From contig CAKKNE010000001.1 in the NCBI GenBank assembly GCA_918797485.1, positions 4,526,001 through 4,590,000 of the forward strand: DNA of 64,000 nucleotides. Direction: 5' to 3'. A program made the translations under genes and the position numbers. How positions within the stretch are numbered: the stretch's first letter is position 1; each line of letters begins with the position of its first letter. The notes under the pieces were generated by a model. That model made no database searches and was not told the DNA's origin. It saw only the letters and a list, made by a program, of their open reading frames with translations. Source of the DNA: Pelagomonas calceolata. Its lineage: Eukaryota. Positions 1 through 44,573 of this stretch are shown here, in pieces.

Positions 1-413
1 TCGTCGGCGTTCATCCTGCTGCCCGCCGGCCGCGACATCGTCTCCTACAAGACGTCGATCCTACCGGGTGAAGCGGAGACGCGGCCGCTCATGACGATGG
101 CGCACTCGTCGAGCCGGACGGGCATGTGGGGCATCTGGGGCCTCAACCACTGCTTCGTCGCGCTGCTCAAGGTCGCCGCGTTTGTCTCCGGCGTCCGTAC
201 TTCTTCCCCGCGACGCCGTCGACACATTTCACGCGCAGGATCCTCGCCAAGGACAAGGAGCAGCTCAAGAAGCTCTGGGTCCTCACGGCCGCGACCACGG
301 CGTACGTCGCCAAGTGGAATAGTGATGTGGCCGACTACGGCGGCGACCTCGGCGGCTTCGTCGTCGTCTGCGGCCTGCAGACGCTGTCGATCGGCTACCT
401 CGCCTTCGCCTAG
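1..413 (+). CDS. Partial (5'-truncated) hypothetical membrane protein; exons <1-179 and 239-413
   Basis: Frame 1 (SSAFILLPAG...GMWGIWGLNHCFVALLKVAA) joins frame 3 (ILAKDKEQLKKLW...IGYLAFA*) if a GT-AG intron at 180-238 is removed; hydrophobic segments present. Confidence 0.65.
180..238 (+). other. 59-nt spliceosomal intron, introner-like
   Basis: gt...cgcgcag; removal restores the frame; contains cgacgccgtcgac, a variant of the shared intron core. Confidence 0.65.
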
Positions 414-497
414 AGCGCTCCGCCACGCTAGGAGCACTAAGAACGAAGTAAAAGGACATTCCGTTACGCCCGCCAGCGCTCCAAGCTACGGCCCTCT

Positions 498-1106
498 CTA
501 CACGATCGAGAAGGAGAGGTTCTCGAACTGCTGCGCGAGCGTCTCGCCGGTCTGGCCCTCGGCGAACATGGCGCCGGCGATGCCGAGCATCGCGAGCCGG
601 CCGTTGGCGAGCTCGGCGTTGAGCTTCGTGGCCTTGGTCTCCGGGTCGTCGTTGTACGACGTGCCGAAGAAGCCGCAGCCGTAGTCGCCCGAGTAGTTGT
701 TCGCGGGCCACCACGCGAGCTCGACGAGCGCGCAGAAGGCGAGGATCTGGGCGATGCCCGCCGCGGGGATGGAGAAGAAGCCGCCGAGGCCGTCCGGCAC
801 GTCCGAGAACTTGAGGTCGGCCGACTTGGAGAGGTAGCCGGGGAACTCGATCTGCGCGTTGTGCACGAGCACGCCCGTGATCGCGACCATGGCGATGCGG
901 CCGTGCTTGCGCTCGACGGCGCGGCGGCGGACGAACGCCTCCGGGCCGTCCTTGGCGACGAAGCCGAGCGGGTCGAGGAAGCCCGCCGGCGCCTGCACGC
1001 CGAGCGTCGACTCGTCGACGGCGCGGAGCGCCGTCGAGGCCGGCGCCGCCGCGGGCGCCTGGAAGGCCGCCGCCGACGAGAGGCAGAGGGCGATCGCGAG
1101 CTTCAT
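498..1106 (-). CDS. Fucoxanthin-chlorophyll a/c light-harvesting complex protein
   Basis: Bipartite presequence (SSAAAF), FLDPLG, ERKHGRIAM and ELANGRLAM chlorophyll-binding helices. Confidence 0.95.
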   Translation of the reverse strand: MKLAIALCLSSAAAFQAPAAAPASTALRAVDESTLGVQAPAGFLDPLGFVAKDGPEAFVRRRAVERKHGRIAMVAITGVLVHNAQIEFPGYLSKSADLKFSDVPDGLGGFFSIPAAGIAQILAFCALVELAWWPANNYSGDYGCGFFGTSYNDDPETKATKLNAELANGRLAMLGIAGAMFAEGQTGETLAQQFENLSFSIV

Positions 1107-1650
1107 CTTTGAAATATTCTGCGAGGGGGGTTGGGTGGGCGCGCGCGCTCGTTGTGCAGCGGCGGCGGCGGTGTGTGTCGAGGTCTACCCGACGAGGTGG
1201 CCACCGGGCGCCTCGTCGGCACCGCCTTCCGCGGTAGCGGCTGAGCGACAGCAATGCGTGCTCGTGCCTTCGCTTTGTCCACGCCCAACAGCTGCCGCGT
1301 GCGAATGCTCGTGGGCACCCAGAACGGGTCAGCCGGACGCCGCGCCGCCGTATAAGGCCTTGCTACGCCAGCGATCCAACCTTGGCTTTACGAGCCGCAC
1401 GAGCGCCGCGGCGGCAAATCTTCTCGCGGTAGCTTCAGTAACCTCGCTCGTGAGTACAACGACCAGCGTGACGCTGCTTTTCACGTGAGTGTGGACGCGG
1501 TAGCTCGCAAATAGCACTATGAAGCCGAGGTATCAAGGCTTCGAGAGGCGAAGCAAAAAACCAATTTCACCTTCTCGAGCCCTCCAGGACGAGTCCGGTG
1601 GTCTGCAATATCGAGGAGGGCTCGAAAAGGGTTTTTGAAACCCGCACGTT

Positions 1651-1672
1651 GCTAGCGTCGTAAGATACTAGC
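1651..1672. promoter_or_regulatory. Conserved intergenic CTAG-pair motif
   Basis: gctagcgtcgtaagatactagc between divergent LHC and JAMM genes. Confidence 0.6.
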
Positions 1673-1819
1673 GCCAAGCAAGCAAACTCGGTCCAGCGCG
1701 GTGCTGAGGGCGAGAGCGTGAGGAGAAGCGGCCATTTGTCTCTGCCTGACGCGCACACTCGGCTGCAGCGGACAAGAGCTGAAAGGATCGTTGCGAGACG
1801 CCAGCCGACGCACCGCACC

Positions 1820-2680
1820 ATGTCCCTAGCCCACTGCACCCTAGCCAAGGAGTGCGCCTTTTGTGTGGTGGCCCACGCCCTCTCGACGGAGAAGCAGGAG
1901 GTCATGGGCCTGCTGTTTGGGCGGTGGGACGGCCCGCAGGCGTTCATCGAGGAGGCGCATCCTCTCGCCAGGACGGACAGGCGTGCTGACCGCGTCGAGG
2001 TGAAGCCCGAACAGCTCGCGAAGGCGGCCTCGATCGCGGAGAGCCGAGGGTTGAGGATTGTGGGCTGGTATCACTCTCACCCGCACATCACGGCGGCGCC
2101 GTCGCACGTCGACGTGAGGACGCAGCGCGCGTATCAAGTTCTCGATGATCGATTCGTGGGCATCATCGCGGCCTGCTTCCCGGGCGTCGACGGCGCGGCG
2201 GCCGCGCGCGGCGCGCCGGCCGTGACGCTTGCTGCCTTCCAGGCGCGCTCGACCTCGGAACCGGGCGCCTTCGCCGCGCCGCTGGCGCTGCCAGCCAGTC
2301 CGCCGCCGGCGTACGCGACCGTGGAAGCAACTTCGGTACCGGTGACCACGGAAGCGCACGCGGGCCGCGACGTGCCGCTGTCCATCGCGTCGGCGGAGAC
2401 TCCAGGCGCGCTCGCGGCAGCGCTCCGGGGCCTCGCGGCCTTGCAGGACGCTTTACTGGCCGAGGAGGTCGCGGCGCGGCGCGCGGCGGCGCCGGGCGAC
2501 GAGGACGCGGGCGCCTTTTGCGACGCGGTCTTCCGCAAGGCCGCTACGTTACTACGCGCCGACGCGCTCCATCCTCTTATTCACGTCGCCGGCGCGTGGC
2601 GCGGTCACGAGCAGCGGCGCCGCGACGCGGCGCTCGCGGAGCGGGACCGGCTGCTCGCGGAGACGTCGGCGTCGGCGTAA
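1820..2680 (+). CDS. MPN+/JAMM deubiquitinase, BRCC36-like
   Basis: HALSTEKQEVMGLL, DRVEV, VGWYHSHPHITAAPSHVD (JAMM HxH...S..D motif). Confidence 0.88.
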   Translation: MSLAHCTLAKECAFCVVAHALSTEKQEVMGLLFGRWDGPQAFIEEAHPLARTDRRADRVEVKPEQLAKAASIAESRGLRIVGWYHSHPHITAAPSHVDVRTQRAYQVLDDRFVGIIAACFPGVDGAAAARGAPAVTLAAFQARSTSEPGAFAAPLALPASPPPAYATVEATSVPVTTEAHAGRDVPLSIASAETPGALAAALRGLAALQDALLAEEVAARRAAAPGDEDAGAFCDAVFRKAATLLRADALHPLIHVAGAWRGHEQRRRDAALAERDRLLAETSASA

Positions 2681-2984
2681 TTTTTGTGGTTTGTAATTGA
2701 GCTATTCCCTCTAGCACGACCCGAGTGAGTGCGTCACGAGAGCGTACTGTAGAGACTAGACTACAGGAGCTCGAATCCCGCGCGAGTGCGAGGAGCTGCG
2801 AGCGGCGCAGCGTCGCACGTACAGCCAGCGCAGGCGATTATAGATTGCTGCGAGGCATGCGCTGATAGCGCATCGCTGCCGCGAAACCGAATTGCATCGC
2901 TTCGGTGCCATCGACCGCGTCTGGCTCTCTCAGACTGTGCACAGCAAAGACTGCAACAGGGGTGCGCGGCCGCAGCGATCGAAG

Positions 2985-4223
2985 ATGGCAGCCGCCGTCG
3001 CCGCCGCGAACGAGGTCATCTCGTTCTACAGCTACACGCCGATTGCGGACCCGCAAGCGCACGCAGCGTGGCAACGCGAAACTGGAGCGCAGCTCGCGCT
3101 GCACGGCCGCGTCATCGTCGCGACCGAGGGCGTGAGTGGTACGGCGAGCGGTGCTGCTGCCGCGACGCGTGAGTACGTGTCGAAGCTCGAAGCCGCGCTC
3201 GGAATTGCGCTCGATGTGAAGCGCGCGCCGCTCGACACGAACGCGGCACCGTTCCCCGACTTCTACGTCAAGGTCGCGGCCGAGATCGTGAGCACGGGCC
3301 TGCCGTGTACCGTCGACGGGTCGGCGCGCCATGCCTCGCCGGCTGCCTTCCGCGACGCGGCGGCGTCCGGCGACGCGCTCATCCTCGACGTACGAAATGG
3401 GTTTGAGCACGACGTCGGCCACTTTGCGGGCGCGGAACGCGCGCCGATCCGCACGATGCAGGAGTGGAAGGCGTACGTGGACGCGTCGGACGTGGTGGGG
3501 CGGAGCCGGGGACGGCCCGTACTGATGTACTGCACGGGCGGCGTGCGCTGCGAGAAAGCGAGCGCCTACCTGCGGTCGCGGGGCGTTGGCGACGTGCAGC
3601 AGCTCGACGGTGGGATTCACCGGTTTCTCGAGGCGTTCCCTGACGGTGTCGACGCGGCGTCCGTCTGACACCATCCGTTCGTCGTGAGTCCGTCGGACGC
3701 CGTCCACGCGTCGTGACGCGTTTCGGTCGCAGGTGGCGGCGTCTGGAGGGGTCGCAATTTCCTGTTCGATAACCGCGAAGCCGAGAACTACAAAGACGGG
3801 GCGTCGAACGTGGTAGGTAGTTGCGGCGATTGTGGAAGGCGTTGGGGCGCGCACGACGGCCGCAACGTGTGTTCGGTCTGCGAGACGCTGTGCCTCGTCT
3901 GCAGGGACTGCCGCGAGACGCGGCACGAGCACTACTGCCCGGAGCACGAGGACCTGCGCGGCGCCTACTGCTGGTTCCTCGACGCCTGCGATGCCGCGGC
4001 GATCGACAAGCAGGCCGACGCGCTCCGGGCGGCGCTGGACGCGCCACGCGCTCGAGGGTCCGTGAACCGGCGGCGCTCGCTCCGGAAGCAGCTCGACCGC
4101 GTCGCGACGCGGAAAGCGGCGCTCGAGGCGGGCGCTGATATCTACGTAGGCCCGCCGCGCTGTCGCTCGTGCGGATCCGTGGAGTGCGAGGGCCAGTGCT
4201 GGGGCTTCTGGAAAAAAGCCTAG
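2985..4223 (+). CDS. TrhO/UPF0176-family rhodanese-domain protein with C-terminal Cys-rich region; exons 2985-3645 and 3733-4223
   Basis: GRVIVATEGVSGT, LDVRNGFEHDVGHF, MYCTGGVRCEKAS, LDGGIHRF; splicing gives the continuation DGGGVWRGRNFLFDNR. Confidence 0.88.
3646..3732 (+). mobile_element. 87-nt GT-AG intron, introner-like
   Basis: Needed to bypass the stop at 3666-3668; its 5' end gtgtcgacgcggcgtcc is nearly identical to that of the 34236 intron (gtttcgacgcggcgtcc). Confidence 0.75.
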
Positions 4224-4233
4224 GTTGTTGTTG

Positions 4234-4911
4234 TTAGTTCTCACCCCTCCGCTTCGCAGTCGGTTGCTCGGACGCGCGGACGTACATCCTCCCCTGCGCG
4301 GCCCGGATGCACAGCTGCCACAGCACGAGTCCCGCGGCGATGCGGAGCGAATATTCATCAGCAATGTCTGGTCGCTCCTGGTAGAGCCAGTCGACAGCGA
4401 CGATTGTGCATGCGAACAAGACGTTGTTGATCTGTTTCCAGTAGCCGCGGTAGAACTTCGACGCCGATTCCGCGAAGGTCCGTGGCGGCGCCGCTTCGTA
4501 GTCTTCAGGCACCAGCTGTTCTCCGGCGGCCGCCAGGATCGTGGCGCATCCCCTGTCATCCGCAACGTCTGTCCACAGCGTGACCCCCGTGCCAGGACTC
4601 TTCACGGCCACGCCCGCACGTCTGGCGTCTATGTTGGGCCCCCGGCCGCAAGGTCCCATGCACGGCCGTGCGCGCAGCTTTACGTCTAAACCATGCTCGT
4701 CCTTCAGAGCTTTGAATCGGCGCAGCGTCTCGCGTGATCCGTCTTCGAGGCAGTCGCGGCCCGTGCATACGTATATTTCAACCGGTGGCGCTTCGCTCGT
4801 CGTCGATGGCGTCGATGGCTGCGGCTGCACAGGGAGCTGCTGCTGTAGCGCCGATACGGATGCAATAACGGGGCTGAGCGCCCACATCAATGCTCGCATG
4901 GCTGCAGGCAT
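4234..4911 (-). CDS. Thioredoxin-like [2Fe-2S] ferredoxin-domain membrane protein, probably plastid-targeted
   Basis: IYVCTGRDC...CMGPCGRGPN Cys pattern; N-terminal signal-like segment; two C-terminal hydrophobic helices. Confidence 0.75.
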   Translation of the reverse strand: MPAAMRALMWALSPVIASVSALQQQLPVQPQPSTPSTTSEAPPVEIYVCTGRDCLEDGSRETLRRFKALKDEHGLDVKLRARPCMGPCGRGPNIDARRAGVAVKSPGTGVTLWTDVADDRGCATILAAAGEQLVPEDYEAAPPRTFAESASKFYRGYWKQINNVLFACTIVAVDWLYQERPDIADEYSLRIAAGLVLWQLCIRAAQGRMYVRASEQPTAKRRGEN

Positions 4912-4981
4912 AAATCACGGCGGCCAGCGAGCACGATTGAGGTGCAAATCGTGCCGGTTTTCGAGCGCGCCGCCATCGCGC

Positions 4982-5006
4982 GCTAGCGGCCTGTAAGACA
5001 CTAGCA
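4982..5006. promoter_or_regulatory. Conserved intergenic CTAG-pair motif
   Basis: gctagcggcctgtaagacactagca, 70 nt upstream of the minus-strand ferredoxin-like gene. Confidence 0.65.
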
Positions 5007-5640
5007 AGCAAATTCGGAACACGTATGCAGCCGTTTGAGTATCCTTCCGTTCGCTAATGGTCCAAAGAGATCGATGGGACACGTACTGGGGGCCGAAAAA
5101 GGCAGTTTTTTAATTCGCGGCCGAGGGCGCCCTACGGGTCTATAACGGCCGCGCCGGTTTAATCCTGTCAATCCCTGCCAAACAGGTGTCCCTGGGGTCG
5201 CCTAGGGTCAGTACTATACACGGTTAGTCGCCTACACCGCATGCGCCGCCGCTTCAATCATTTTTAGTCGATTTCTCTCAGCAGTCCACGGAGGTTTAAC
5301 AACTTATAGCTATGGTTTGCTTCCAGGGCTCTCGGGGAGCACTAGACTGTCGCATCGATGGCGTATGCGGCGCGGGCGACAACCCACCACCAGACCTACC
5401 CCAGAGGGCGCCCGGGGGCCGACCTGCATCCGAAAAAAGTAAATGATTTGGACCCGATGGTGCCCCGTCCCCGTAAAAAACGTCAATTACCCGAGGCCCC
5501 CCAGTAGTCGCCGTAGCGGTCTCGTCGGACCCAATACTACCCCACCGATAGTCAACTACAAGTATATGCCATCTACACCACGAGAAGGGTACTTTGGGCC
5601 GACCACGCTCGGGACGTGAACATCTTGATCTGGACCTCGG

Positions 5641-8360: not shown

Positions 8361-8604
8361 GGTGTCGTGTGGTTAAGACAGCACGTCGCAGCGATGGCGT
8401 GGAACGTAGACCCGCGCTCGAACGAATTGATGCTGGCGGTGCGTGCCGCGGCGATGGCTTGTGTCGGGTGGGGCTGTGGGGTGCCCTCTAGCGATGCGTT
8501 TCGACCTGCTCGCTGCAGCGCAGCTACAAGGCAACTTTAAACGATGTGCTTGCTGCGTATTTTGCCTTGTTTAGCTGCCGCTGCGATTTTCCCCGGGTCC
8601 GTCT

Positions 8605-10165: not shown

Positions 10166-12954
10166 ATGGCCACCCAGCACGCCGACGTCAAGCGCTTGCG
10201 AGCGCCTTTTGATGGATTCGTCGTCGACGGCTTCAATTTCACGAAGACGTTCCCGGGCTGCCGCCACTGGCTCCTCACGCACGCGCACAGCGACCACACG
10301 TGCGGCTTGTCGGGAGGCTTCGACGCGGGTACCATCTATTGCTCGGAGATCACGAAACGGCTCGTGACGCGGGACGTCTCGGCGCGTCTAGGAGAACGTA
10401 TGGTCGTCATCAACGCGGGCGCCTCGCTACACATCGAGGAATTATCAACCACGTTAACAGCTCTGGACGCGGGCCACTGCCCGGGGTCGCTCCTCTTCCT
10501 GCTCGAGCACGGGCCCACGAAACTATGTGTCTTGCACACGGGCGACATGCGCGCGTCAGAACACATCCGGAACCAGCCCTTGTTGGCGCCGTTCCGCGAC
10601 AAGACGAAAAAATTGGACGCGCTGTACCTCGACACGACGTACGCCAACCCCAAGTACGACTTCCCGGCGCAAGTTGATGCTTGTGACGAGATCAAGCGCA
10701 TCGTCCGGGAGGAGCTGCGACGGGAGCCCAAAACGTTATTCCTGTGCAACACGTACAGCGTGGGCAAGGAGAACGCGTTCGATGCCGTGGTAGACGCGTC
10801 CGGAGGCACGCTGTTCGTGCCGCCGCGCCGGGCCGAAGCTTTACGGCTGTGCGACCGGTGGCGCGCTTGTTATACGAACGACGTCAATGACCCTCAAGTC
10901 AACGTCTGGGTGGGCGGCGCCACGTCAGGAGTAGATCAAGCCTTAGGTAGAGACCGGGACCAGAAGGGGCCCCACGGTGAACTCAAGAAGCTGCTCGACT
11001 CGCAGCCGCGCTACGAGGCGGTTGTTTCACTGAGATGTACGGGGTGGGAGTATCGGCCCGGGAAAGCGTCGTCCGCGGTCTGGGCGGAGAACGACGGTTG
11101 TACGAGAACTTATGGAGTGCCTTACAGCATCACGCCTGTGTCCTCCACGCCATCGACGCGACGCCTGCTCGATGGCTTGCACCCGACACACTGGTTGATT
11201 TCCCCACAGGCGAGCACTCGTCGTTTCTTGAACTGGACGCCTTCGTCAGAGCGTTGTGTCCACGCGAGGTCGTGCCTACGGTCAACGCTTCCACGAGGGA
11301 CAGGAGGGATAAATTACGAGACTTGTTTTCGCCCGGGACGGACCTGAAGCGAGACAAGGGCCGCATGGACGCCTACCTGAAGGGCGGCGCTCTCGAGGCG
11401 GTCGACGTCCAGCGCCAGAAGCGGTTACTAGCGTCGTTCTCTAAGGCTTCGGAGGTCGAGGTCGACCCCGCGCTCGTAGAACAGCTCCGTGCGATCATCG
11501 GCGAGGCGCCTCAGGACTACTGCGCGCGTTTACTGCGGGACGCTTCATTGAAGATCGACGGCGCGGTCGACGTGCACTTCGGCGCCAATCAAGGTGCCGT
11601 GCCGCGCGAGTACTACGTCACGGCCAAGGAGGGTCCGTCGGAAGACGACGACCGCGACTTGCTCGTCGGGGCCGTCTTCGCGGTGCGCGGTCGCGACGAG
11701 GACTTTAAGCTCTTCAAAGGGAGCTCGCGGGAGCCGCCACCTAAACGGGCGAGGGGCATGCCGCGGCCGAAGGCCCAGCAACCGGGCGGCGCCGCGGATC
11801 GAGTGCGGGCGCGGCTCAAGCAATTGGGGGCTTGCGTGGTCGAGCGGGATGCCAAGGGCGCCAAGAAGCTCGCGCCGACCCATGTTATTGTACCGGAAGG
11901 GACGGAAAAGGGCCAGCTGATCGGCCTCGACGTCTTAGTAAGGGTGCGGACGGAGTCGTGGCTCATCAAGCGATGTCGGGCGTTAGATGCCGGTGCCCTG
12001 GCGCCGCCTCCCAGAGAAGTTGTGGAACTCGCGGCGAAGAAGGCCCAAGGGCCGCCGAAGGAGAAAGCGCCGCCCGACAAGGGGCCCCGCGGCGAGACGC
12101 GCGCGGGCCCGCGGCGGCGGCGCACGCGCGAGACCGACGCGAACTCGCACCGCGCGCTCTCCGAGACCATGTATTTGGTGGAAAGGCGCGACGAGACGCG
12201 GCGCGTGCCGGGGGCCTGCCGCGCGCCGCCGCTTCGCCACGTGTTCGCAGTGTTAGGATCGACAGGCAACGTCTACGACGTCGCGATCCAGAAGGAGCCC
12301 TCGTGCAGCTGCCCCTACGCCGTGAGCCACCCGACGAAGGTGTGCAAGCACCGCTACTTCGTCTGGTACCGCGTTTTGAAAATTCCTCGGGATGATGATC
12401 AGCGATGCTCCGAGGCCGACGCGACGCTGAAGCACGTGCCGCACCAGCGCTACTTGCGCCGAGACGAGCTGCAGACGGTGCTCGTGGATCGGGTGGCGTC
12501 AGCCGCGCCGATGGCGTCGCGGGCGGCTAGAGATGCCTATCGGCGGGCCAGTGGAGACGTGATAGATGTGGACGCGTCGGACGAGGAACGCGAGGTCCCG
12601 CGGCGGCCGCTCGACGAGTGCACGGTCTGCTTCGAGGGCTTCCGCGACGACGCCACGCACGACTTCTGCGGGGCCTGCGGGCGGAACTACCACGAGGCGT
12701 GCCGCGACCGCTGGTTCACGTTCAAGAAAGCTCGCGTGTGTGCGGTGTGCGCGGCGCCCTGGCGGGCCGCGCCGGTGGCGCCCGACGCGGCGGTCGCGCG
12801 GGAAGAGGGCTACGTGAACCTGCGGGCCTTCCAGCCGGACGTCGCATCAGAGCGGGACGCGTCGTCGTACGCGCAGAACGACCGGGGCGAGCGGTGGGTC
12901 GACGTGCACGCGGACCGCGCGGCGGCGAAGGCTACGTCGCCTGGTGCGCCTTGA
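10166..12954 (+). CDS. SNM1/DCLRE1-type MBL/beta-CASP DNA repair nuclease with UBA-like, BRCT-like, SWIM and RING domains; exons 10166-11126 and 11210-12954
   Basis: LTHAHSDHTCGL, DAGHCPGS, LHTGDMR, YLDTTY; spliced VPYSEHSSFLEL; SWIM CSCP...CKH; RING CxxC...C..C...H..C...CxxC. Confidence 0.88.
11127..11209 (+). mobile_element. 83-nt GC-AG intron, introner-like
   Basis: Removal restores the conserved YSEHSS motif; carries the core ACGCCATCGACGCGAC (11147-11162) and the cactggttgattt tail shared with the 36236 intron. Confidence 0.8.
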
Positions 12955-16629: not shown

Positions 16630-16796
16630 TCTTCCTTGCGTAGCTCAGCGGTGGTAGATAGCAATCTCATCGCATCGATGGCGTATGGGGTGCAGCGCTT
16701 GGCAGGCGATGCGTGGGGTTCATGGCGCCATCCGGGCAGCTTCGGGGCATTTTTGGGCTGCGCCGCGTGCCTCTTCTCGGAGAGCGGCCGAGAGCC

Positions 16797-16821
16797 TGCT
16801 AGTGTCTTACGGGACGCTAGC
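16797..16821. promoter_or_regulatory. Conserved intergenic CTAG-pair motif
   Basis: tgctagtgtcttacgggacgctagc in a divergent gap. Confidence 0.65.
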
Positions 16822-17140
16822 TGCCAAAGCCGGCGGGCCGCTAAAACAGCCGCGCTGCAGCTCTCCGCTGCACAGAGCGCGCGTAGCGAAAAGCCCAACA
16901 GAAGCCTGACAGCCATCGCTGCAGCTAGCGCCGTCGCCGCGCCCACTGCACGCCCCAGCGCACCGCAAAGCACGACGCCCCTTCACGCGACTGACGAACC
17001 GATAACATTAACCTTAGGACACCTTCGGAGGTCCTCGATCGATGAGACTAACTTGTTTTTCTACTGCCGACGCGTCGTCACAGCAAGAGAGATAGCAAAC
17101 CGACCGCCCGGCCGCCGTCACGCACGTCACACAGGCTCCG

Positions 17141-29142: not shown

Positions 29143-29165
29143 GCTAGTGGTGTAAGACACTAGCA
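29143..29165. promoter_or_regulatory. Conserved intergenic CTAG-pair motif
   Basis: gctagtggtgtaagacactagca upstream of the FKBP gene. Confidence 0.62.
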
Positions 29166-29279: not shown

Positions 29280-29369
29280 GTAAGGCAGGCACTGCTCTGT
29301 GTTGCTTGGGACGTGTGCTCTCACACTCAACTACTTGCACACACCATCGACGCGACGTGAGAAGCGCAG
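29280..29369 (+). other. Candidate 5'-UTR intron carrying the introner core
   Basis: gtaagg donor at 29280, acaccatcgacgcgac at 29341-29356, gcgcag acceptor 18 nt before the FKBP ATG. Confidence 0.45.
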
Positions 29370-32033: not shown

Positions 32034-32045
32034 GACCTTTTCTAG

Positions 32046-33173
32046 TTACCCGTTTCCTCCACGCGCGCTGAGCGCCTCTCGCGACCCTCTCAGAGACCGC
32101 TCAAGTTCCACTACCATCGGATGCGCACGGCCGAAAACGCGCTGCGCGGTCCGTGCCGTGTCCTCGAGCTTCGTCACGGCCTCGCGGAGATCGTCGGGCG
32201 TGGCGCTGGTGTCCATGTAGAGCACATTCGCGTAAATCCACCTCATCCTGAGCGTGATCTCATGAGTCTCTCCCAAAATGCGTGGCGTCACGCGAATAAT
32301 TTTGCGCAGCAGTGACTTGGCTTCTTTGTAGCGTCGCAGAACAACAAGGGACGCTGCGTAGTTGTTGGCTGCCGTAAGGGTATAAGTATGCTCCACTCCA
32401 TGTGTCGTTAAACGCCCGAAGTACACGTCTTTCTGCATCTGCATGGCCTGTTCAAGCCGTCCAAGGTGTTGATACGTGAGTGCAAGATTGGTCTGCACGA
32501 CGAGTATGTTGCTTGTTGATGCGCCAAGGCGCCGCTTCATAGCCAACTCGGCCTCTCTCACGGACAGCGCGTCCTCGTGGTGTTTTGCAGCATCTAAACC
32601 GCTTCCAAGCACATTAATCGCACCTTGCCGAGGCCAATCCGTCTCCGACCGGCCCACGTACGTCTTCCAGCACGCCCACCCGACCGCGCACCCCACGTCA
32701 CCGTGGTAGCGTTGTTCGCACAAACTGCACCTGTCCCACCGCGCCCACCTCTCATCAAACACCTTATCGCTCAAATTGTTCTCCTCGGCCTCCGCGACCA
32801 AGATCTTCGCCTGCTCCGCCAAGCACGACACATGCGCGAAACCCGCCGTCCCGCGGCACGAGCACCCACGCACGAGGCCCTCCTTTGTTTTCCAATGGAG
32901 CGCCTGCGTGCAGATGTAGCACGTCTGGCCCTTGGTGTCCTCCGCGCACGCCTCCGCGGCGACCGTGACCGCCTCTGCGTACTTCTTATTTGCGTTGTAT
33001 TGCTCGGCGCCGCCTGCTTTTTTTATGGTCTTACAGAGCTTGTCGTGCCCGCCCTCTTCCCAGTGTTTTTTCTGGCATTCAGGCCCACAGTAGCGTGTGC
33101 TGCAGCGGCCGCATTTCTTGCCCAAGGTTAAGCCAAGCTCGGTAGCGCAGACGGCGCACTGCGTGAGGATCAT
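32046..33173 (-). CDS. MYND zinc finger + RING-variant + TPR (kinesin-light-chain-like) protein
   Basis: CAVC...CGRC..RYCGPECQKKHW...H..C; CYIC...CSCRG..GFAHVSCL...W..C.LC; TPR repeats with LG..H..TL. Confidence 0.88.
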   Translation of the reverse strand: MILTQCAVCATELGLTLGKKCGRCSTRYCGPECQKKHWEEGGHDKLCKTIKKAGGAEQYNANKKYAEAVTVAAEACAEDTKGQTCYICTQALHWKTKEGLVRGCSCRGTAGFAHVSCLAEQAKILVAEAEENNLSDKVFDERWARWDRCSLCEQRYHGDVGCAVGWACWKTYVGRSETDWPRQGAINVLGSGLDAAKHHEDALSVREAELAMKRRLGASTSNILVVQTNLALTYQHLGRLEQAMQMQKDVYFGRLTTHGVEHTYTLTAANNYAASLVVLRRYKEAKSLLRKIIRVTPRILGETHEITLRMRWIYANVLYMDTSATPDDLREAVTKLEDTARTAQRVFGRAHPMVVELERSLRGSREALSARGGNG

Positions 33174-33380: not shown

Positions 33381-35141
33381 ATGGTCAACCTCCACGCCCC
33401 CAAGCGGACCATCCCGCGCACGCGGCCGAAGAAGCAACCGAAAGCGGAGCCCAAGGACTCCATCCGGGCGCAGCTCGACCAGGCCCAGCAAGGGTTAGAT
33501 AGCATGCGGGAGCTCGTCGACGTTTTGGAGGCCGAGAACGTGTCCTTCGGTAGATATATTGAAAGTGCCAAAGGAAGTTCTAGTGACGAGGAACCGGAAC
33601 GCCAGCGGGGCGGCCTCGCGGACGACGGCGAGTCCTGCTTCCTGACGGGGCTGCACCACCCGGGCGTGTCGCCGATCGCGTCGCCCCGGCGCGTCGACGA
33701 GTCCGAGTCCGACACGGCGTCTTCCTCATCCTCGGAGTATGATGGAGAGGCGAAGCTCGAGGCGGCGATGTTGGATTGTGCCGTCGCCAAGCGAAAGGCC
33801 AAGCGGAACGCGCGGCGCGGCACTATCAAATTACGCGCGGACGACGAGCGCGAGGTCAAGTCGTATCAGGAATCGGTGGATAAGCTCAAAGCCGAAAGAA
33901 GGCGCAAGGAGGAGGACTTACAACCGAAGCCCATGGTGCGGACGGTGCACGACTGCCCCGAAGCGATTTCGAGGTTGGCCCGGCCCGAGCCGAGGCCCGA
34001 GCCACGAATCTACTCGGAACCCCAACCCACGTTCCAGGCGAAGCCCCTTCCAAAAACGTACGGCGCGCCCGCCGCGCGGAGCGGCACGATCGTCGAGCGC
34101 TCGCAAGCGTGGCTCGCGGAGAAGCGCGCGCTCCGCGACGCGGAGAGAGAAAGGAGGCGCAAGGAGAAGGAGGCGGAGGTGACGGCGAAGCCCCGGCTCG
34201 CGGACCCCGAGGCCTGGGCCAAGGCCAAGGACGAGGTTTCGACGCGGCGTCCTCGATGGCGTGGAGAGGTGCCCATACGCCATCGCCGCTGCCGAGCGAG
34301 TGCCGAGACGCCATCCAACCTTCGCGTCGATGGCGTGAATGGTGCCGAGACGCCATCGACGCGACACTACCTCACCGGTCGCACCGAGAGAACGCCATCG
34401 ACGCGACGCTACATCACACAGGCGCGGGCGGCGCGCGCCAAGGCGGAACTGGAAGAGCTCGAACGCGAACAGATGAAGGAACTGCGCGAAGCCAAGAAAG
34501 ATCAGCTCCGCCGGCAGAAGGCCGACGAGATCGCGGCCATGCGCGCGGCGCTGAAGGCCCAAGCGCAACAGCGCGCGGCGAAGCGGGGCAAGCGAAAGGA
34601 TGGACGCAGGGCCACGGACCCCACGAAGGCGTCGCGCTTGGCCGCGCACAAGCGCGCTTTGGTGCCGGAACAGGCGTCGACCGTGGCCGACGAGGAGGAG
34701 GAGCGGCCCGTGACGGCCGAGGACCCGTACCGCGGCCTCGAGCCCTTCCGCCTCAACTCCGCCGCGCTGCGCATCTTAGATGGAGAGCGGGGCTCGTCGG
34801 ACGACGAGGCGTCGATCGCGTCCGAGGCGCGGGAAGCCGCCGACCGGCTCGACGAGACGCTCGCGGCCTCGCCTGTGCGCGAGGAGGACGACGTGGGCTT
34901 CTTCGACCCGACGTCGTCGGAGGAGCGCGGCCGGAAGCGAGTCCGGGACGCGCGGTTGTTCGAGCCGTCAAGTATGCGGCGCGCCGTCGCCGAGGACGGC
35001 GTCGTGCTGCTGCTGGGCGAGCTGGCGGAGCACCCGCGCACGGAGCACGTCATCTGCGTGCTGTTTGATCGCTCCAAATTCTCGGAGCGGGCGGCGCTGC
35101 AGTGGTGGCGCGAGGGCGGGCGGGAGGTGTGTGAGCGGTAA
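33381..35141 (+). CDS. Hypothetical charged coiled-coil protein; exons 33381-34235 and 34422-35141
   Basis: Long ORF; a 62-codon repeat-rich insert bounded by GT...AG interrupts an EKR-rich helix. Confidence 0.7.
   Translation: MVNLHAPKRTIPRTRPKKQPKAEPKDSIRAQLDQAQQGLDSMRELVDVLEAENVSFGRYIESAKGSSSDEEPERQRGGLADDGESCFLTGLHHPGVSPIASPRRVDESESDTASSSSSEYDGEAKLEAAMLDCAVAKRKAKRNARRGTIKLRADDEREVKSYQESVDKLKAERRRKEEDLQPKPMVRTVHDCPEAISRLARPEPRPEPRIYSEPQPTFQAKPLPKTYGAPAARSGTIVERSQAWLAEKRALRDAERERRRKEKEAEVTAKPRLADPEAWAKAKDEVSTRRPRWRGEVPIRHRRCRASAETPSNLRVDGVNGAETPSTRHYLTGRTERTPSTRRYITQARAARAKAELEELEREQMKELREAKKDQLRRQKADEIAAMRAALKAQAQQRAAKRGKRKDGRRATDPTKASRLAAHKRALVPEQASTVADEEEERPVTAEDPYRGLEPFRLNSAALRILDGERGSSDDEASIASEAREAADRLDETLAASPVREEDDVGFFDPTSSEERGRKRVRDARLFEPSSMRRAVAEDGVVLLLGELAEHPRTEHVICVLFDRSKFSERAALQWWREGGREVCER
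34236..34421 (+). mobile_element. 186-nt in-frame intron with multiple copies of the introner core
   Basis: gag|gtttcg...cacacag|gcg; core at 34350-34365 and 34392-34407, inverted at 34322-34336. Confidence 0.78.
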
Positions 35142-35145
35142 CATT

Positions 35146-35572: not shown

Positions 35573-36762
35573 GTGAGCTTGCTGATGGGACAAAAAACGC
35601 ATTCGTCCTACGACGCGACGCACGCCAATACGTTAAATGCGTCGATGGCGTCGTTACGAAAATACATGAAACGCGTGAGTGAGACGGACGTGATAGTATG
35701 GCACGAGGGCGACCTCACGCGCGACGACGCGAACGCGCTCGACGGCGCGACGAACGTGCGGTTTTGTCTATTACGGAAAGAAACAGGATGGGGCCGCCCG
35801 CCCTGGCTCAAGAAGATGCCACCCTCGCAATTCTCGGCAGGCTACCGCTTCATGATCCGCTTTTATGCGGTCACGATCTGGCCCACTTTAGATAGATTGG
35901 GCTACGAGTGGGTCATGCGCATGGACGACGACTCCTTCTTCCTGTCGCCCGTGCCGTACAATATTTTTGAGGACATACGTCGTAGAGGAGCTCTCTATGC
36001 CTACCGTACTTTATCGAGGGAATGCCCCGTGATCTTCGGCGACTTTGTGGAAGATTTTGTCGAGTACGTCTCACAAACGCAGCGTCGATTGGCGTCGATG
36101 CGCCGGCTGCTGGGTCCGAGGCGGAAGCAGCCCGGCGTCTCCTATAAACCGTGGTACTGCCCGGGGCCCGGGCGGCTGGGCTTCTACAACAATTGGTTCG
36201 TGACGAAGATTTCCTGGTGGCTCGAGGATCATCGCGTCGCGGCCCGTGCTGAATCGTCGCGTCGATGGCGTATCACTGGTTGATTTATGCGCAGGTCGCG
36301 GCGCTCATCGGCGCCTTCGACCGCTCGAACCTGATCTTCACGCGGCGGAGCAACGATCTCATCTTCCAGACGGCGGCGATCAAGCTCTTCCTGCCGAAGG
36401 CGCGGCGGCGGCGCTACGCGGACTTCTCGTACCAGCATCATACCATAACGAACGGCGCCGTGCTCTACGGCGGCATCGAGAGCGGCTGGCGCGACCGCCG
36501 GGCGCGGCACACGCTCCGGGCCTACGCGCACAAGCACGTCGGCGCGCACCGGGATCGAGACCCGGCGACGGGTCTCCGGACGAATTGGACGACGCCGGAC
36601 CTGAGGGTGCGGAGCTGCCACGTCCAGGAGCATGTTGACGGCCCGTTCCGGCCGACGTACTACGTCGCGCCGCCGCACGACGCGACGCAGGCGCATCGCC
36701 AGCGGCCGCCCAATTTCATCGCGCCCTTCTGCGGGCCGGGGCGCCGGACGGCTCTCGAGTGA
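35573..36762 (+). CDS. GT15 (KRE2/KTR-like) alpha-mannosyltransferase; intron 36236-36294; 5' end uncertain
   Basis: GYRFMIRFY, YEWVMRMDDDSF, FYNNWFVTKISWW, IFTRRSND, Y.H motifs spread over two frames joined by the intron. Confidence 0.8.
36236..36294 (+). mobile_element. 59-nt introner element with 8-bp target-site duplication
   Basis: gtcgcggc at 36236-36243 and 36295-36302; phase-0 GT-AG; inverted core at 36256-36271. Confidence 0.85.
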
Positions 36763-37736: not shown

Positions 37737-37777
37737 ATTTTTCCTCCCCTCCCCCCCGCTGTAACGATCACAAAAAG

Positions 37778-38800: not shown

Positions 38801-38953
38801 CGCTGGTCGCTTATGAAGGTGTCATTTCCATCGATGCGAGCTATGGGCAGCCTTGCATGCCCTGTGCTCCGCCGGGTGCTTGCTAGTGTGTATCACCTAG
38901 GGAAACTCTATGATCTACAAAACCAGGGGAGGGGTCTTGGGGGACGAAGCGCC

Positions 38954-40234
38954 TCACGCCGAGCCGAGGACGGCGACGTGGAGGTCGCCGGCGCCGGCAT
39001 CGGCGTGCTTGCCGGCCGTCATTGATGCCGTGGGGACGACGGCGAGCCACTCGCGGACGACGAGGCCCGCGGCCGCGAAGAGGGGCTCGCGCATCGCGCG
39101 GCGGCCGAGGGTGACGACGAGAACGACGCCGGCGGGCCGGAGGCACGCCCGGGCGGCGGCGAGGTAGGCCAAGGCGTCGGGGGACGAGGCCGCCCACGTA
39201 TCGGTTACGTCCGCCCGCTCCCGCACGGGCTTGATGAGCATGGCGTCGAGGCAGCCCTTGTCGAGGACGAGGGCCGCACTCCCGTCCGCGCAGCCGAGCG
39301 GCGCGAAGGACGCCGTGAGGTCGCCCGTGACCCACGCCACCCGGGAGTCGGGGTGGCGCCTGCGCATCCGCGCGGTCGCGTTGTCCGCGTAGTCGGCCGC
39401 CACGATCCGCGCGCCGGCGTGCGCGCGTTCGAGCTCGACGGGGAGGTCGGACGTGCCGTTGCCCGAGACCAGGACGAGCCCGGTCCCGCCGCGCGGCAGC
39501 ACGCGGGCCACGACGCCGGCGATCGCCGCGAACGGGCAGTACCACTCGAAGACCTCCTCGGCGTCCATGCGCCGCGCCCAGTACCGTTGCCCGTCCTCGA
39601 GGAGCTCGAGCCCCATGAGCCGCGGCACGACCAGCTCCAGCCCCGCCGCGAGGGGGCCCGCGACCCACAGCAGCGATAGCGTCGCGTTCGTCTCCGCGTC
39701 GTAGACGGCGGCGCGGCCCGCGGTCGCGGCCCCGGCGTCGTCGACGCCCACCGTCCGTAACCGCGACCCGAGCTCGTCCTGGACGTAGTACGTCACGTCG
39801 CCGCCCCGCGCCGCCGCCGCCGCGTCCGCCACGAGGCGCATCGGGTGCGCGAGGGGCGCCAGCGTCTTCAGCAGGCCGAGCGTGGCCCCCGCGTCGCCGT
39901 ACGACCCCGGCGCGGTCCCGTGCGGCCGCACCAACGCATCCAGGCGGTCCCGCAACTCCTCGTGCGCGTCAAGCTGCGTGAACGCCGCGAATGCGTCTTT
40001 AACGAGCCACACGTGGTCCACCAGCCACACGTCCATTCCTTCGAGGTCCCGCGCCGCCACGACGGACCACCCGCCGTCCGCCTCGACCGCGTACGTCAGG
40101 GACGCCCCCCCGTCGAAGATCTGCGCCCGCACCTTGCGCGCCGCCTCGTTCCACAGCTCCCGGGGTAGCTGAATCGCCGCGAACTGCGCCGCGTGCGCCT
40201 CGAGCCACGCGCCGTCGTCCGCGTACGCCGCCAT
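38954..40234 (-). CDS. TTLL12-like N-terminal domain fused to a class I SAM methyltransferase (EEF1AKMT4/METTL13-like)
   Basis: VWLVDHVW, YVQDELGSR, SLLW; then YWARR...FEWY, SGNGTS, DKGCLDAM. Confidence 0.72.
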   Translation of the reverse strand: MAAYADDGAWLEAHAAQFAAIQLPRELWNEAARKVRAQIFDGGASLTYAVEADGGWSVVAARDLEGMDVWLVDHVWLVKDAFAAFTQLDAHEELRDRLDALVRPHGTAPGSYGDAGATLGLLKTLAPLAHPMRLVADAAAAARGGDVTYYVQDELGSRLRTVGVDDAGAATAGRAAVYDAETNATLSLLWVAGPLAAGLELVVPRLMGLELLEDGQRYWARRMDAEEVFEWYCPFAAIAGVVARVLPRGGTGLVLVSGNGTSDLPVELERAHAGARIVAADYADNATARMRRRHPDSRVAWVTGDLTASFAPLGCADGSAALVLDKGCLDAMLIKPVRERADVTDTWAASSPDALAYLAAARACLRPAGVVLVVTLGRRAMREPLFAAAGLVVREWLAVVPTASMTAGKHADAGAGDLHVAVLGSA

Positions 40235-40520
40235 GCCGTAGGCCTTGGTGAAAATCGACCGGTGACGCGGACGCTGCGAACGCGAGTCCACGCCATGGTT
40301 CAGAAGGCGCCCTGAAGGTTGAATTCCGCCTGGGTCGATGCGAGCGAACGATGCGAGCCGAGCGATTCGCAGCGGAGCAATATCAATGCGCAGCAATGTT
40401 AAAGCGGCAAAAGGAGAGCTTCAGCTGCGTCGTGCTTGCACTGATGCTCTATAGCTGAACCCTTAGCCAAGCCCACGAATGCCGCGTTCCGAGCGTCAAG
40501 TGCTTGCTTGCTTGGGGTGC

Positions 40521-40543
40521 CTAGTGTCTTACAGGACGCTAGC
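40521..40543. promoter_or_regulatory. Conserved intergenic CTAG-pair motif
   Basis: ctagtgtcttacaggacgctagc upstream of the methyltransferase gene. Confidence 0.65.
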
Positions 40544-40662
40544 AAGCGGGGGGGTTGCGAGGTGTTTGAATCGGGACGACGATGGGAAACTAGAGGTTAT
40601 ATACAAAAACCGGTGGGAGGGGATCTTGGGAGTGGTCTTGGGGTCTCGGGGACGGACGCGCC

Positions 40663-41271
40663 TCACGCCGTCGCCGAGCCGAGGTCCGCGCCCATGGCGC
40701 CGTGCGTCACCGTCGTCATCTCGTTGCATTCGAAGATGAGGTCCGTGCCGCACTTGAAGAGGCCGCAGACCTCGGCGGAGCCCTCCGCGCCGCTCGCGCG
40801 GTCCTTGTACGAAACGACGTGGTGGCTGAAGATGTGCGTCTCGCGCTTCCCGTCGTTGGCGAACGCGTAGGCGTGGAGCTCCTTCCAGCGGACGCTCACG
40901 TCTTTTATCTTGCCGTGCACGACCTTCATGTGCTCGACGAACTCGTCGTAGCCGATGGTCTTGCCGTCGACGTGCTGGACGTAGTCGCGGTCGAAGTACT
41001 TGGGGATCTTGGCCTCGAGCTGCTCCACCGACGAGGCGCAGACGACGTCGTTCATCACCTGCGTGGGATCACGACGACGTCGCGTCGATGGCGTGGGGGC
41101 TGACGCTGCGAGAACCGTCATAAAATAGTCCTTCCACCAAGTCTCCGAGACGTAGCCCTTGTTGGTGTAGAACTCGCTCAGGTCCATCGGACCCGTCGCG
41201 GTCGGCTGCAGTTTCAGGCTGCGGCTCCGGCCAGAGCCTGATCCAGACGTGTCGGACGACGAGTAGGCCAT
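40663..41271 (-). CDS. SnoaL/NTF2-like small protein; intron 41059-41115
   Basis: KYFDRDYVQHVDGKTIGYDEFVEHM resembles SnoaL-like fold proteins; alternative start at MDLSEFY. Confidence 0.68.
   Translation of the reverse strand: MAYSSSDTSGSGSGRSRSLKLQPTATGPMDLSEFYTNKGYVSETWWKDYFMTVLAASAPTPSTRRRRDPTQVMNDVVCASSVEQLEAKIPKYFDRDYVQHVDGKTIGYDEFVEHMKVVHGKIKDVSVRWKELHAYAFANDGKRETHIFSHHVVSYKDRASGAEGSAEVCGLFKCGTDLIFECNEMTTVTHGAMGADLGSATA
41059..41115 (-). mobile_element. 57-nt in-frame intron with introner core
   Basis: acg|gttctc...cccacgcag|gtg on the minus strand; exact core at 41079-41094. Confidence 0.78.
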
Positions 41272-41470
41272 GTCGTCCGTTTTTTAGACCAGGGAGGCGG
41301 GCGACTGGTGGCTGGCTCACAGGCAGAACTTGCCAAAAATGTGAATTAGGCCTCGGCGACCGGATTCTCGCACTTATGAGGATACACCGTGAGTGTGTGA
41401 AGTCTCGCGAAGCTCGCACACGGGCCCAGACTCCGGACGGTCCGGCGAGCACGCTGTGTGAAATAGGTGG

Positions 41471-41494
41471 GCTAGCGGCCTGTAAGACACTAGC
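41471..41494. promoter_or_regulatory. Conserved intergenic CTAG-pair motif
   Basis: gctagcggcctgtaagacactagc, identical over 24 nt to the copy at 4982. Confidence 0.65.
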
Positions 41495-41563
41495 GGCCTA
41501 TTCTCGCGCGACTCCTCGTGCGCCACCGAAAGTATTCCAATCTCACAAACACAAAAAAACTTA

Positions 41564-42790
41564 CTACGGACCAGGTGGCGGCGGCGGCTCCGGCAGGAAC
41601 CCGAACCGAGCGTCGTACGCGTCGACCACTCCACAAAGCGCCTCGCTACAAACGCCGAAGTCCGCGTCTTCGAGCCCGTACTTCGCGAAGTGCTGCTGGT
41701 ACGCGCCCATGGATCTAAGTTTGGCGAGCTTGTCCAAGTAATCGACGAGCAGCGCCGGCGCGAGATTCGTCTGCGCGACACAAGTCAACGAACGCTGCCC
41801 ATCGACCTTATGAGAGGACCGAGACAGGGCGTGGGGCTCGAAGAGCACGGCGCCGGGCGGCGCCCGTCGCGCATCGGGCGCTAGTCTCTTCCGCAACATT
41901 GATAGAGGCAACGGCGACGCGTCACCAACACCGCGAGCGACCGCCGTCGCCTGGCACGCAACCAAGGGCCGATCCAACACATCAGCCTTCGGGAAGGCCT
42001 CGGCCAACCGGGACGCGAGCTTCGGCCAGTCGTCGCTTTTTTTCACAGGTTTTGATAGTGTCGACCGCACGTCGCAGAAGGGTAATGAAGTACAGCACCT
42101 CAGGACCACATCCCGTTGACCGCAGAACTGCCTTTCGATATTATCTTGCAGGCGCGGCAATAATAGACCGGCGAGGTCCCGGGCGAAGGCCGCGTTCGGT
42201 TCTTCGGTGGGCGCGTCGCAGGCGTAGTCGCGCCAGATTGAAGCATCAGCGTACTCCGTCAATTGGTGCAGCGCGAGGCAGGCGTTGTACGCGGCCATCG
42301 GCGTCCCGAAGCCGCGCCTCGACAGAGCCACGCCGAGCAATGTAGATGTAGGGTAGTCGTCGCGCGCGCCCTGGAGCAGTGCGGAGGCCAAACCAGATGT
42401 GCCACCATCAATAGAGAAGAGGAAGGACAGCGTGCCGACCCTTGAACAGCGCTCGGCCTCGCGCCTTAATCGTTCCTCGGCCATTTCCCGCAGCTCCTCT
42501 CGCTTCGAAAAGCCCATGCCAAAGCACTTGCCGCAGCCGAAATTGCCCTTCGTCACGATGTCCCTCGCATCAAAGACCGGCCGCCTGCCTCCTAGCAATT
42601 GGCAGCCCTCGAGCGCGCGGTCGTCGCCATCTATAATAATGGCGCGCGCCGTCTGCCTTCGGACATCGAATAAGGCGCCCTTGCGCCGCTTCTTGTCGTC
42701 CTCATCAGCAGCCTCGCCCGCGGCTATCCTCCAGAAGTGGCTCGCGACGTCGGCGCCCGTCTGGCCGAGCGCGAGGTGGACGCTGGTCAT
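41564..42790 (-). CDS. Divergent tubulin, delta-like (zeta not excluded)
   Basis: LGQTG, ARAIIID, EAERC, GGTSG, YNACL.L..L, C-terminal GAYQQHFAKYGLEDADF. Confidence 0.75.
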   Translation of the reverse strand: MTSVHLALGQTGADVASHFWRIAAGEAADEDDKKRRKGALFDVRRQTARAIIIDGDDRALEGCQLLGGRRPVFDARDIVTKGNFGCGKCFGMGFSKREELREMAEERLRREAERCSRVGTLSFLFSIDGGTSGLASALLQGARDDYPTSTLLGVALSRRGFGTPMAAYNACLALHQLTEYADASIWRDYACDAPTEEPNAAFARDLAGLLLPRLQDNIERQFCGQRDVVLRCCTSLPFCDVRSTLSKPVKKSDDWPKLASRLAEAFPKADVLDRPLVACQATAVARGVGDASPLPLSMLRKRLAPDARRAPPGAVLFEPHALSRSSHKVDGQRSLTCVAQTNLAPALLVDYLDKLAKLRSMGAYQQHFAKYGLEDADFGVCSEALCGVVDAYDARFGFLPEPPPPPGP

Positions 42791-43032
42791 CGTTTTCTTC
42801 GGCGCGTTTTTGGCACTGTTTAAGTGCTTGCCGGAGGCCGAATTTGCGTCGCTGTTGCACGGCGCGCGCTGCGTAGGGCCCGGAGAGCACCTGGTGAGAT
42901 GCTCTCAGGCTCAGTAGACTGCGCACCCCCGGTCGCAGCTGTTGTGGCGCTGCAAAAGAGATACGAGTGCGTCTAATTGAGATGATCAGAAGCCAGGAGC
43001 GGCTCTATAACCGCGGCGGGCGCGAAGCTGTT

Positions 43033-43057
43033 TGCTAGTGTGTTACGGACCTTTAGC
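43033..43057. promoter_or_regulatory. Conserved intergenic CTAG-pair motif (second arm degenerate)
   Basis: tgctagtgtgttacggacctttagc between the tubulin and cyclin genes. Confidence 0.55.
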
Positions 43058-43261
43058 CTCAAAAATTAATTCAGCCACAGCAGCCTGTAACATGACATCC
43101 TCAGCCCGCTAGGCGCGGCTAGAAGCTATTGAAGCGGTACAGTCAAGCCACTGGACCGGCGCAACGCTGCTCCCCAAAAAGGAGCGGCCTCTGCGGGCTC
43201 CCCGCTGAGCACAGGCCAAGCGTAGCATCTCAGGCTGCGCAGGGCCAGCGACCGGGCAAAG

Positions 43262-44506
43262 ATGATCGAGCAGCCCCTGCCGCCCCCCAAAGAGCTCGAC
43301 CTCGGCGCCGCCGCCGCCCGCGACGAGCTTAAAGACCTAGACCCCCTCGGCGCCGCCGCGGGCAGGCGAGCGAAGGTCGTCGCGGCCGGCCACGCCGCCG
43401 CCGACCACAAGACGACCATTTTAGTGCCGCCACAAAGACCCAAGCGGGTGGGCTTCATCGAGGAGAAGATCCCGGAAGACGCGCCCGCTCCGGCCGAGGA
43501 GAAGCGGCCGCCGCGGGCATCTAGATTGTCATTATCCACCTCACCATCCGACGCCGGCTCGGTAAAGAATCGCCTGTCCATCTCCCAGTCGCCGGAGGGG
43601 CTGAGCCTGACGGACGAGAAGGCCCTCTTCACCCCGACGCACGTCGTCTCAACGCCGTCCGTACCTCGAAGAGTACCCTACGCCTCACCAGCCATCAGAA
43701 TACAAAGCAACCGCCACCAGCAGGTCGGGTCCGCGTCTGGCTCCGTTTCAAGGCCAGATTTTGACGACTGTCTTCGAAGGTCAGCAGCGGTATTACACAA
43801 GCACGTGACCGTTTGTGATTGGCGACGAAGACGAGCAGCGAGGGACCGGCCGGAGACACTAGATACGGGACAATTCAGAGACAGCGCAGCTCGACTCTTC
43901 GACGAGGCGCGGTACGCGGCGCCGCGAAAAGCGGCGACGATCTTCCGCCTACCGCTGGCGTATGGCGCTTTTCATGTGTCTACAAGAACACTAGCCCCGA
44001 AGTACACGACGCCGTCGATGCGGGACATCTATGATTTTATGTCCGCTTTGTTCTTGAAAGCTCACCTGTCCTCGGAGTGTTCTGTGGTTTGTCTGATCTA
44101 CGTCGAGCGGTTGATGGAGAAGGCGCACGTGCCGTTCGACGACCGGACCTGGCGACCAGTACTACTCTGCTCCATGCTTTTAGCGTCGAAGGTCTGGCAG
44201 GACTGCGCGTCGTGGAACGTGGAATTTAGCGCGGTCTTCCCCCAGTTCGGGCTGGCGGCGCTGAATCGCTTAGAAAGGGTCTTCGTGACGCAGATCGGCT
44301 GGGACATGTACATCTCCCAGTCTTTATATGCGAAATACTACTTCGCTTTACGGTCTTTGAATGAGAAGCAGGACTTTAGGCGGCGCTACAACCGCTTCGT
44401 GCTCGATGACCGGCGCGAGCCCGCTCCGAAAGACGCGCGCATCGTCGAGCAGCGGTCGACCAAGATCCGGAGCGAGTGGGTCAAGGCGCTGTCGAAGTCG
44501 ATCTAG
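43262..44506 (+). CDS. Cyclin Y-like protein
   Basis: IYDFMSALF..A.LSSECSVVCLIYVERL, W RP...MLLASKVWQD, N.LER, SLYAKYYFALR. Confidence 0.88.
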   Translation: MIEQPLPPPKELDLGAAAARDELKDLDPLGAAAGRRAKVVAAGHAAADHKTTILVPPQRPKRVGFIEEKIPEDAPAPAEEKRPPRASRLSLSTSPSDAGSVKNRLSISQSPEGLSLTDEKALFTPTHVVSTPSVPRRVPYASPAIRIQSNRHQQVGSASGSVSRPDFDDCLRRSAAVLHKHVTVCDWRRRRAARDRPETLDTGQFRDSAARLFDEARYAAPRKAATIFRLPLAYGAFHVSTRTLAPKYTTPSMRDIYDFMSALFLKAHLSSECSVVCLIYVERLMEKAHVPFDDRTWRPVLLCSMLLASKVWQDCASWNVEFSAVFPQFGLAALNRLERVFVTQIGWDMYISQSLYAKYYFALRSLNEKQDFRRRYNRFVLDDRREPAPKDARIVEQRSTKIRSEWVKALSKSI

Positions 44507-44573
44507 TCTTATGTGGTAATCGAATGATATTGTGAGTTTTAGACTACGCGTCGCGTCGATGGCGTTTCTTTTT

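Follow-up and report, generated by a model that had tools for sequence, protein, structure and literature searches.

Why do short introns in unrelated genes of a pelagophyte alga share a 16-nucleotide (nt) word, and what does this word tell us of their origin? The question is raised by a stretch of 64,000 nt of Pelagomonas calceolata DNA (assembly GCA_918797485.1, contig CAKKNE010000001.1, positions 4,526,001 to 4,590,000), hereafter the window, which is gene-dense, about 63% G+C and made up of algal genes. An initial annotation, made from the letters alone, had proposed seven introns, here called by their start positions, and had linked them to introners, non-autonomous DNA transposons that create introns and are described in pelagophytes. 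This link was right: the feature is real and its class is known, the introns behave as pelagophyte introners do and derive from them, and the copies in the window are relics rather than intact members. To elaborate, the window introns are spliced and are, very probably, insertions of non-autonomous introner DNA transposons that have since shrunk through deletions between short internal repeats.

The proposal that these segments are spliced fared well: RNA shows splicing for five of the seven, and a sixth (36236) is backed by the conserved protein that its removal restores. Further, RNA reveals two introns that had been missed, at 16948 and, on the minus strand, at 1119. The raw spliced reads for 180, 3646, 11127 and 34236 all come from one sample. 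In the following list, the core denotes the shared 16-mer, while families 1 and 2 denote the two families of parent elements described below.

180–238, plus strand: 59-nt GT-AG intron; spliced raw reads (6/1/1 in three runs); no significant core; weak likeness to family-2 ends
1119–1484, minus strand: 366-nt GT-AG intron upstream of the open reading frame (ORF) of a light-harvesting protein; RNA joint (2/6/0 reads and a contig); no core
3646–3732, plus strand: 87-nt GT-AG intron in a UPF0176/rhodanese gene; spliced raw reads (5/12/7); 6/8 match resembling a target duplication
11127–11209, plus strand: 83-nt GC-AG intron, a family-1 relic by alignment to that family; spliced raw reads (9/15/7)
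16948–17134, plus strand: 187-nt GC-AG intron directly upstream of a Dcp2 ORF; spliced reads (28/9/11); no core
29280–29369, plus strand: candidate intron of 90 nt that precedes an FKBP ORF; outside the core it matches neither family
34236–34421, plus strand: 186-nt GT-AG in-frame intron; spliced raw reads (14/9) and a contig from another sample; repeated core modules
36236–36294, plus strand: 59-nt GT-AG intron, a family-1 relic, in a PF01793 glycosyltransferase gene; protein alignment
36236–36243, plus strand: intronic copy of the 8-nt target duplication, which supplies the GT donor and is identical (8/8) to the exon start at 36295–36302
41059–41115, minus strand: 57-nt GT-AG in-frame intron, likely a family-2 relic; spliced in one contig only, from another sample; core at 41079–41094, sense to the intron
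44550–44565, minus strand: exact but non-intronic core; it follows the stop codon of a cyclin gene and falls within the broken 3' tail of a MYND-RINGv-TPR family gene fragment

Neither 36236–36294 nor 29280–29369 is among the RNA splice joints listed. Removal of the former gives a frame of 372 amino acids as against 232, and the window around the resulting junction aligns without a gap in 12 of 13 homologues, the thirteenth having a one-residue gap four positions upstream. These homologues, at 42–65% identity, are continuous across the site, but may themselves derive from RNA or from spliced gene models. We count 36236 as an intron supported by protein alignment and keep 29280 as a candidate. 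The in-frame 41059 intron is also on record unspliced, within a 202-amino-acid frame (40663–41271, minus strand) found in several sources, with the spliced form seen in the contig; it could be either a case of in-frame retention or a missed intron. The practical point is that 57 nt of intron stand on record as coding sequence.

Turning to the core, all six places where the initial annotation had located the exact 16-mer were found: 11147, 34350 and 34392 on the plus strand and 36256, 41079 and 44550 on the minus strand, as against none in 100 shuffles. With up to two mismatches there are 14 matches, where 0.24 are expected. Likewise, the 5' end common to 3646 and 34236 and the 3' tail common to 11127 and 36236 are as written there. 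The statement that nearly all the introns share sequence went too far: four of the eight supported introns have the exact core, and in the other four (180, 1119, 3646 and 16948, which include both of the missed introns, these having none) it is absent or at chance level. The best match in 180 has five mismatches and is equalled by 55 of 400 shuffles, and that in 3646 has three (3697–3712) and is equalled by 22 of 400. The candidate 29280 holds a core with one mismatch at 29341–29356. The 34236 intron carries sense cores at 34350 and 34392, an antisense one with one mismatch at 34321 and half-cores at 34254 and 34277; it thus has cores in both orientations, as do long family-2 copies. At 44550, the codons for ETPS in the MYND-RINGv-TPR fragment spell the first nine letters of the core.

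The parents of these introns were sought by scanning metagenomes with the 16-mer, which gave at least 121 loci. When 161 metagenome and viral loci were clustered with the core masked, 25 fell into family 1 and nine into family 2. Family 1 has 15-nt terminal inverted repeats, both of which are kept in 21 of 121 loci spanning 72–210 nt, with nine of these 21 measuring 197–210 nt; the repeats are paired in the fold of one such locus (L055), and the full element folds strongly (z −6.7). Six of 29 family-1 loci, in which a repeat was missing or shifted, were set aside; over the remaining 23 copies, flank identity reaches 0.81 at 8 nt, as against 0.18–0.30 at 6, 7, 9 and 10 nt. The intronic duplicate starts with GT or GC in 22 of the 23 copies. 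Of all 23, a codon model places 11 in sense and 12 in antisense orientation relative to the host gene (the strand of one was set by its donor and one is ambiguous). In family 1 the CAG end serves as acceptor, and the donor consists of the two bases that open the upstream duplicate; hence, splicing removes the element along with one duplicate and restores the message in either orientation. Family 2 spans 94–289 nt and has ends related to those of family 1, its long copies bearing three cores in both orientations. The core is common to both families and their interiors are otherwise unlike. One locus (L056) is a chimera with family-1 ends and a family-2 interior, and two family-2 copies (L080 and L103) have the same donor-side end with the interior flipped.

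As for wider kinships, hAT-type miniature inverted-repeat transposable elements were considered and not adopted: the 8-nt target duplication fits, but the ends, CTGTG or CTGCG, are unlike the hAT end consensus, (C/T)ARNG. Kinship to RAG-like ends was likewise dropped, as the duplication length and end sequence differ from theirs. The viral contigs gave no match to the right end of the element and 40 matches to a 17-letter core word, none of which clusters with either family; hence, there is no sign of viral carriage. In one viral contig (L161, 401–417) a core in an AT-rich non-coding stretch is preceded by element-like letters, and it too clusters with neither family.

Scored against these parents under a null model that leaves the core unchanged, 11127 reaches z 19.8 and 36236 z 6.1 for family 1, while 41059 reaches z 4.0 for family 2 and matches it on both sides of the core. 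With the core masked, 11127 and 36236 also match family 1; a 31-nt match to the parent end found in this way has an E-value of 3e-10. As judged from their alignment, 11127 and 36236, which lie in unrelated host genes, are shown to be colinear, same-orientation pieces of family 1 in which the acceptor end is still present and the donor-side repeat is gone. The former is family 1 with two internal deletions: its left repeat is cut to 4 nt (11136–11139), and the core (11147–11162) with its hairpin partner and the right inverted repeat (11195–11209) are retained. What remains of the latter is the 8-nt duplication, without a mismatch, together with a portion of the left arm and the right end (36274–36294). 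The paired terminal inverted repeats of an intact element were not found in either; only the acceptor-side repeat is left, and they are therefore filed as relics rather than intact elements. In one run, 1518, 732 and 2124 loose read ends leave 11140–11176 into the missing element arms; as these reads stem from the organism of the window and continue from the 11127 intron into its lost arms, the parent is present in this genome.

The geometry of the parent also bears on the orientation of the core. In the parent, the right half of the core lies inverted upstream of it and the left half inverted downstream. At 36236, a 31-nt deletion between these two halves brings exact matches of 17 and 10 letters side by side. 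The junction reads as the reverse core (36256–36271), which is thus a product of deletion and not an inversion. The core at 41079 is sense to a minus-strand intron and the one at 44550 is non-intronic. Hence, the mosaic make-up and the core working in either orientation, as advanced in the initial annotation, are mostly explained by deletion geometry and strand. Among the remaining introns, 41059 likely derives from family 2, and the same family perhaps gave 180, 3646 and 34236; the 5' end common to the latter two is similar to the left ends of family 2 and complements the first letters of the core. Target duplications match at 8/8 in 36236, 6/8 in 3646 and 1–4/8 elsewhere. Profile scans of the window yielded no copy of element length; apart from the introns named here and the 44550 core, no match exceeded the reversed-sequence control.

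A further line of evidence comes from wild relatives. The gene at 2985 has its closest named orthologue in the pelagophyte Chrysophaeum taylorii (57%) and environmental relatives at 91–97%, and parts of the window are present in marine metatranscriptomes. At the 3646 site, the reading frame of four relatives ends at one and the same stop codon within the intron. One wild allele (P0261) equals the 3646 intron minus 29 nt lying between two 7-nt direct repeats, and with 2 nt added at its 3' end is 27 nt shorter overall; in another, from an error-prone contig (P0141), the degenerate core of 3646 is seemingly absent. At the 36236 site, four of the 15 listed members match the window, one of them being the window's own sequence; in P0298 the left arm of family 1 runs on into the right repeat, likely without a core, and P0296, P0299, P0301 and P0305 differ at the 3' end. 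These alleles point to single insertions that may be shrinking by different routes.

How does this compare with published systems? For P. calceolata, 956 putative introner elements have been reported with a peak of intron length at 210 nt, inverted repeats and GT/GC donors (PMC9481584). The parent resembles these in its length (8 plus about 200 nt as against a peak of about 210 nt), inverted repeats, GT/GC donors, AG acceptor and 63% GC genome, and compared by description, family 1 would share its sequence with them. The window introns compared (57–186 nt) are shorter than this published class of about 200–210 nt, which nine of the 21 parent copies (197–210 nt) fit. The rule used there requires more than 90% overlap of an intron with a repeat, and relics of 57–90 nt would likely fall outside it (PMC9481584). 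A separate account gives about 14% GC-AG introns for the species and does not use the word introner in the part available (10.1101/2024.10.30.620910), and the available part of PMC12130899 has no passage on pelagophytes. In Aureococcus anophagefferens, introners insert in either orientation and take the donor from the target duplication (Huff et al. 2016, via 10.1101/2020.10.14.339549); like family 1, they carry one splice site and obtain the other from the duplication (10.1101/2020.10.14.339549, PMC10228655, PMC7789003). Unlike that case, the window has no intact copy, only deleted relics. Fungal introner-like elements degenerate in sequence and length into ordinary introns until they are unrecognisable, much as do the window introns (PMC3609843). 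The fungal elements are described as lacking inverted repeats and target duplications (10.1101/2022.06.06.494994), whereas here decay begins from a DNA transposon and alleles can be compared at single sites.

Thus, with pelagophyte introners known and fungal decay described, what is added here is the anatomy of the relics. This anatomy and the shared core were not found in print by searches with the sequences and on introner deletion and microhomology, which did not cover subscription papers and bioRxiv supplements; the core and repeat sequences had no match in the paper texts searched or in part of one supplement. It is possible that the core or partial overlaps are already visible in the logo or intron table of PMC9481584. 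The number of introns of introner origin is likely underestimated by counts that require near-full-length repeats. Ocean samples offer deep sequence coverage of this alga, and how fast and by which path decay proceeds can therefore be tested on alleles at single sites; the core common to two families, the L056 chimera and the single-site allele series are worth a genome-wide look.

Several points weigh against the origin of these introns by insertion and subsequent deletion. A duplication match of at least 6/8 is seen in only two of the eight supported introns. The introns 180, 3646, 34236 and 29280 are not firmly assignable (z 3.8, 3.8, 2.7 and at most 1.2, respectively), and the core-less 16948 also reaches z 3.5, making this band of scores unreliable. 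The metagenome loci were chosen by the core and are unable to test its retention. The wild alleles were read not from DNA but from the amino acids of proteins called through unspliced introns in environmental contigs; the direction of the 3646 allele is unrooted (a deletion there or a duplication here), and no empty-site allele was seen among the wild relatives examined, the close ones carrying the same introns. Finally, short copies with both repeats intact exist (72–102 nt), and some short forms may be mobile.

This last point bears on an alternative in line with the initial annotation, in which the short introns are mosaic introners that were put together by recombination at the core, are mobile and had today's length when they inserted. 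We consider this improbable. Copies such as L009 (88 nt, 8/8) and L113 (72 nt, 7/8) combine both repeats with good duplications, L056 mixes the ends of one family with the interior of the other, and among the Pelagomonas and Aureococcus introner families of 62–211 nt listed in PMC9860276, some measure 62–85 nt and belong to Aureococcus and Pelagomonas metagenome genomes. However, the window introns that can be assigned have lost the donor-side repeat, no two window introns are alike end to end, and wild relatives show different deletion alleles at one site.

Similarly slim is the chance that selection maintains the core, whatever the origin of the introns, because it acts as a splicing enhancer, an RNA hairpin or a DNA-binding site. 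The exact core survives in four of the eight supported introns despite the loss of 60–80% of the parent in the assignable ones; however, a passive product of deletion between repeats could account for this, and four supported introns do without it. Its presence in two families with otherwise unlike interiors, along with near-copies (1–2 mismatches) at 5349–5364, 8385–8400 and 16669–16684, which lie upstream of minus-strand genes, sense to them and without element ends, might speak for a function, whereas the wild 36236 allele likely lacks it. Folding z-scores range from −4.1 to +1.7, and a conserved RNA hairpin as its general role was rejected (the initial annotation had named a hairpin site as one possibility), with three of seven introns folding better than shuffles. 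It is hardly credible that these are ordinary introns of old age whose CG-rich motif is due to chance or composition: many metagenome and viral 16-mer matches do fall by chance in coding DNA (the metagenome ones in bacterial genes), and 180 and 3646 have no significant core, but six exact copies against none expected, the core-masked match to the parent end and the exact duplication at 36236 speak against it, and it is refuted for 11127 and 36236, though it may still hold for 180, 16948 and 1119.

Returning to introners shrunk in place by deletion, we envisage the following course of events. An element would insert in cut-and-paste fashion by means of an unseen transposase and would later shrink where it stands by deletions between internal repeats, the 16-mer being one of these. 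The acceptor end would be retained because splicing needs it, and the core would persist because repeat-to-repeat deletions leave or rebuild one copy, not from any need of the intron. In the parent, the core could be a putative subterminal transposase-binding module common to both families; subterminal repeats occur in other DNA transposons. No transposase was found in our analysis. A bolder version, which we put forward as speculative and rather doubtful, is that the 16-mer is the predicted binding module of one transposase making 8-nt duplications, with at least two introner families swapping interiors at it. A large share of the short "ordinary" introns of this alga would then be unrecognised relics, and the independent wild deletion alleles a time series in which the donor-side end is disabled first, which would prevent excision of the element and the 8-nt frameshift that would follow from it.

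A related observation is that base 2 of the donor-side repeat is replaced by any of the other bases in nine of the 23 family-1 copies, compared with changes at 27 of 322 other positions (p 1.5e-4); the acceptor-side repeat shows no such change in these copies. This rate is not above the mismatch rate of the adjacent duplication (33/138, p 0.13), and inactivation of the donor end at base 2 is only a lead.

The window has other repeats. The codons of the MYND-RINGv-TPR family tail spell half of the core, and at 44587–44930 two broken tails of this family lie head-to-head and form a 151-nt fold-back, with a full member at 32046–33173. The 151-nt inverted repeat (44598–44907) had been entertained as a transposon bounded by core half-sites; this was rejected, as it consists of these two gene-family tails. 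Further, there is a second dispersed repeat of 24 nt, apparently intergenic, with seven copies at up to five mismatches:

4982–5005, 16798–16821, 40520–40543, 41471–41494, 43034–43057, 50413–50436 and 53444–53467, both orientations: copies of the 24-nt repeat

A shorter piece of it lies near 29145–29165, and the repeat could be a promoter motif or the relic of a small transposon.

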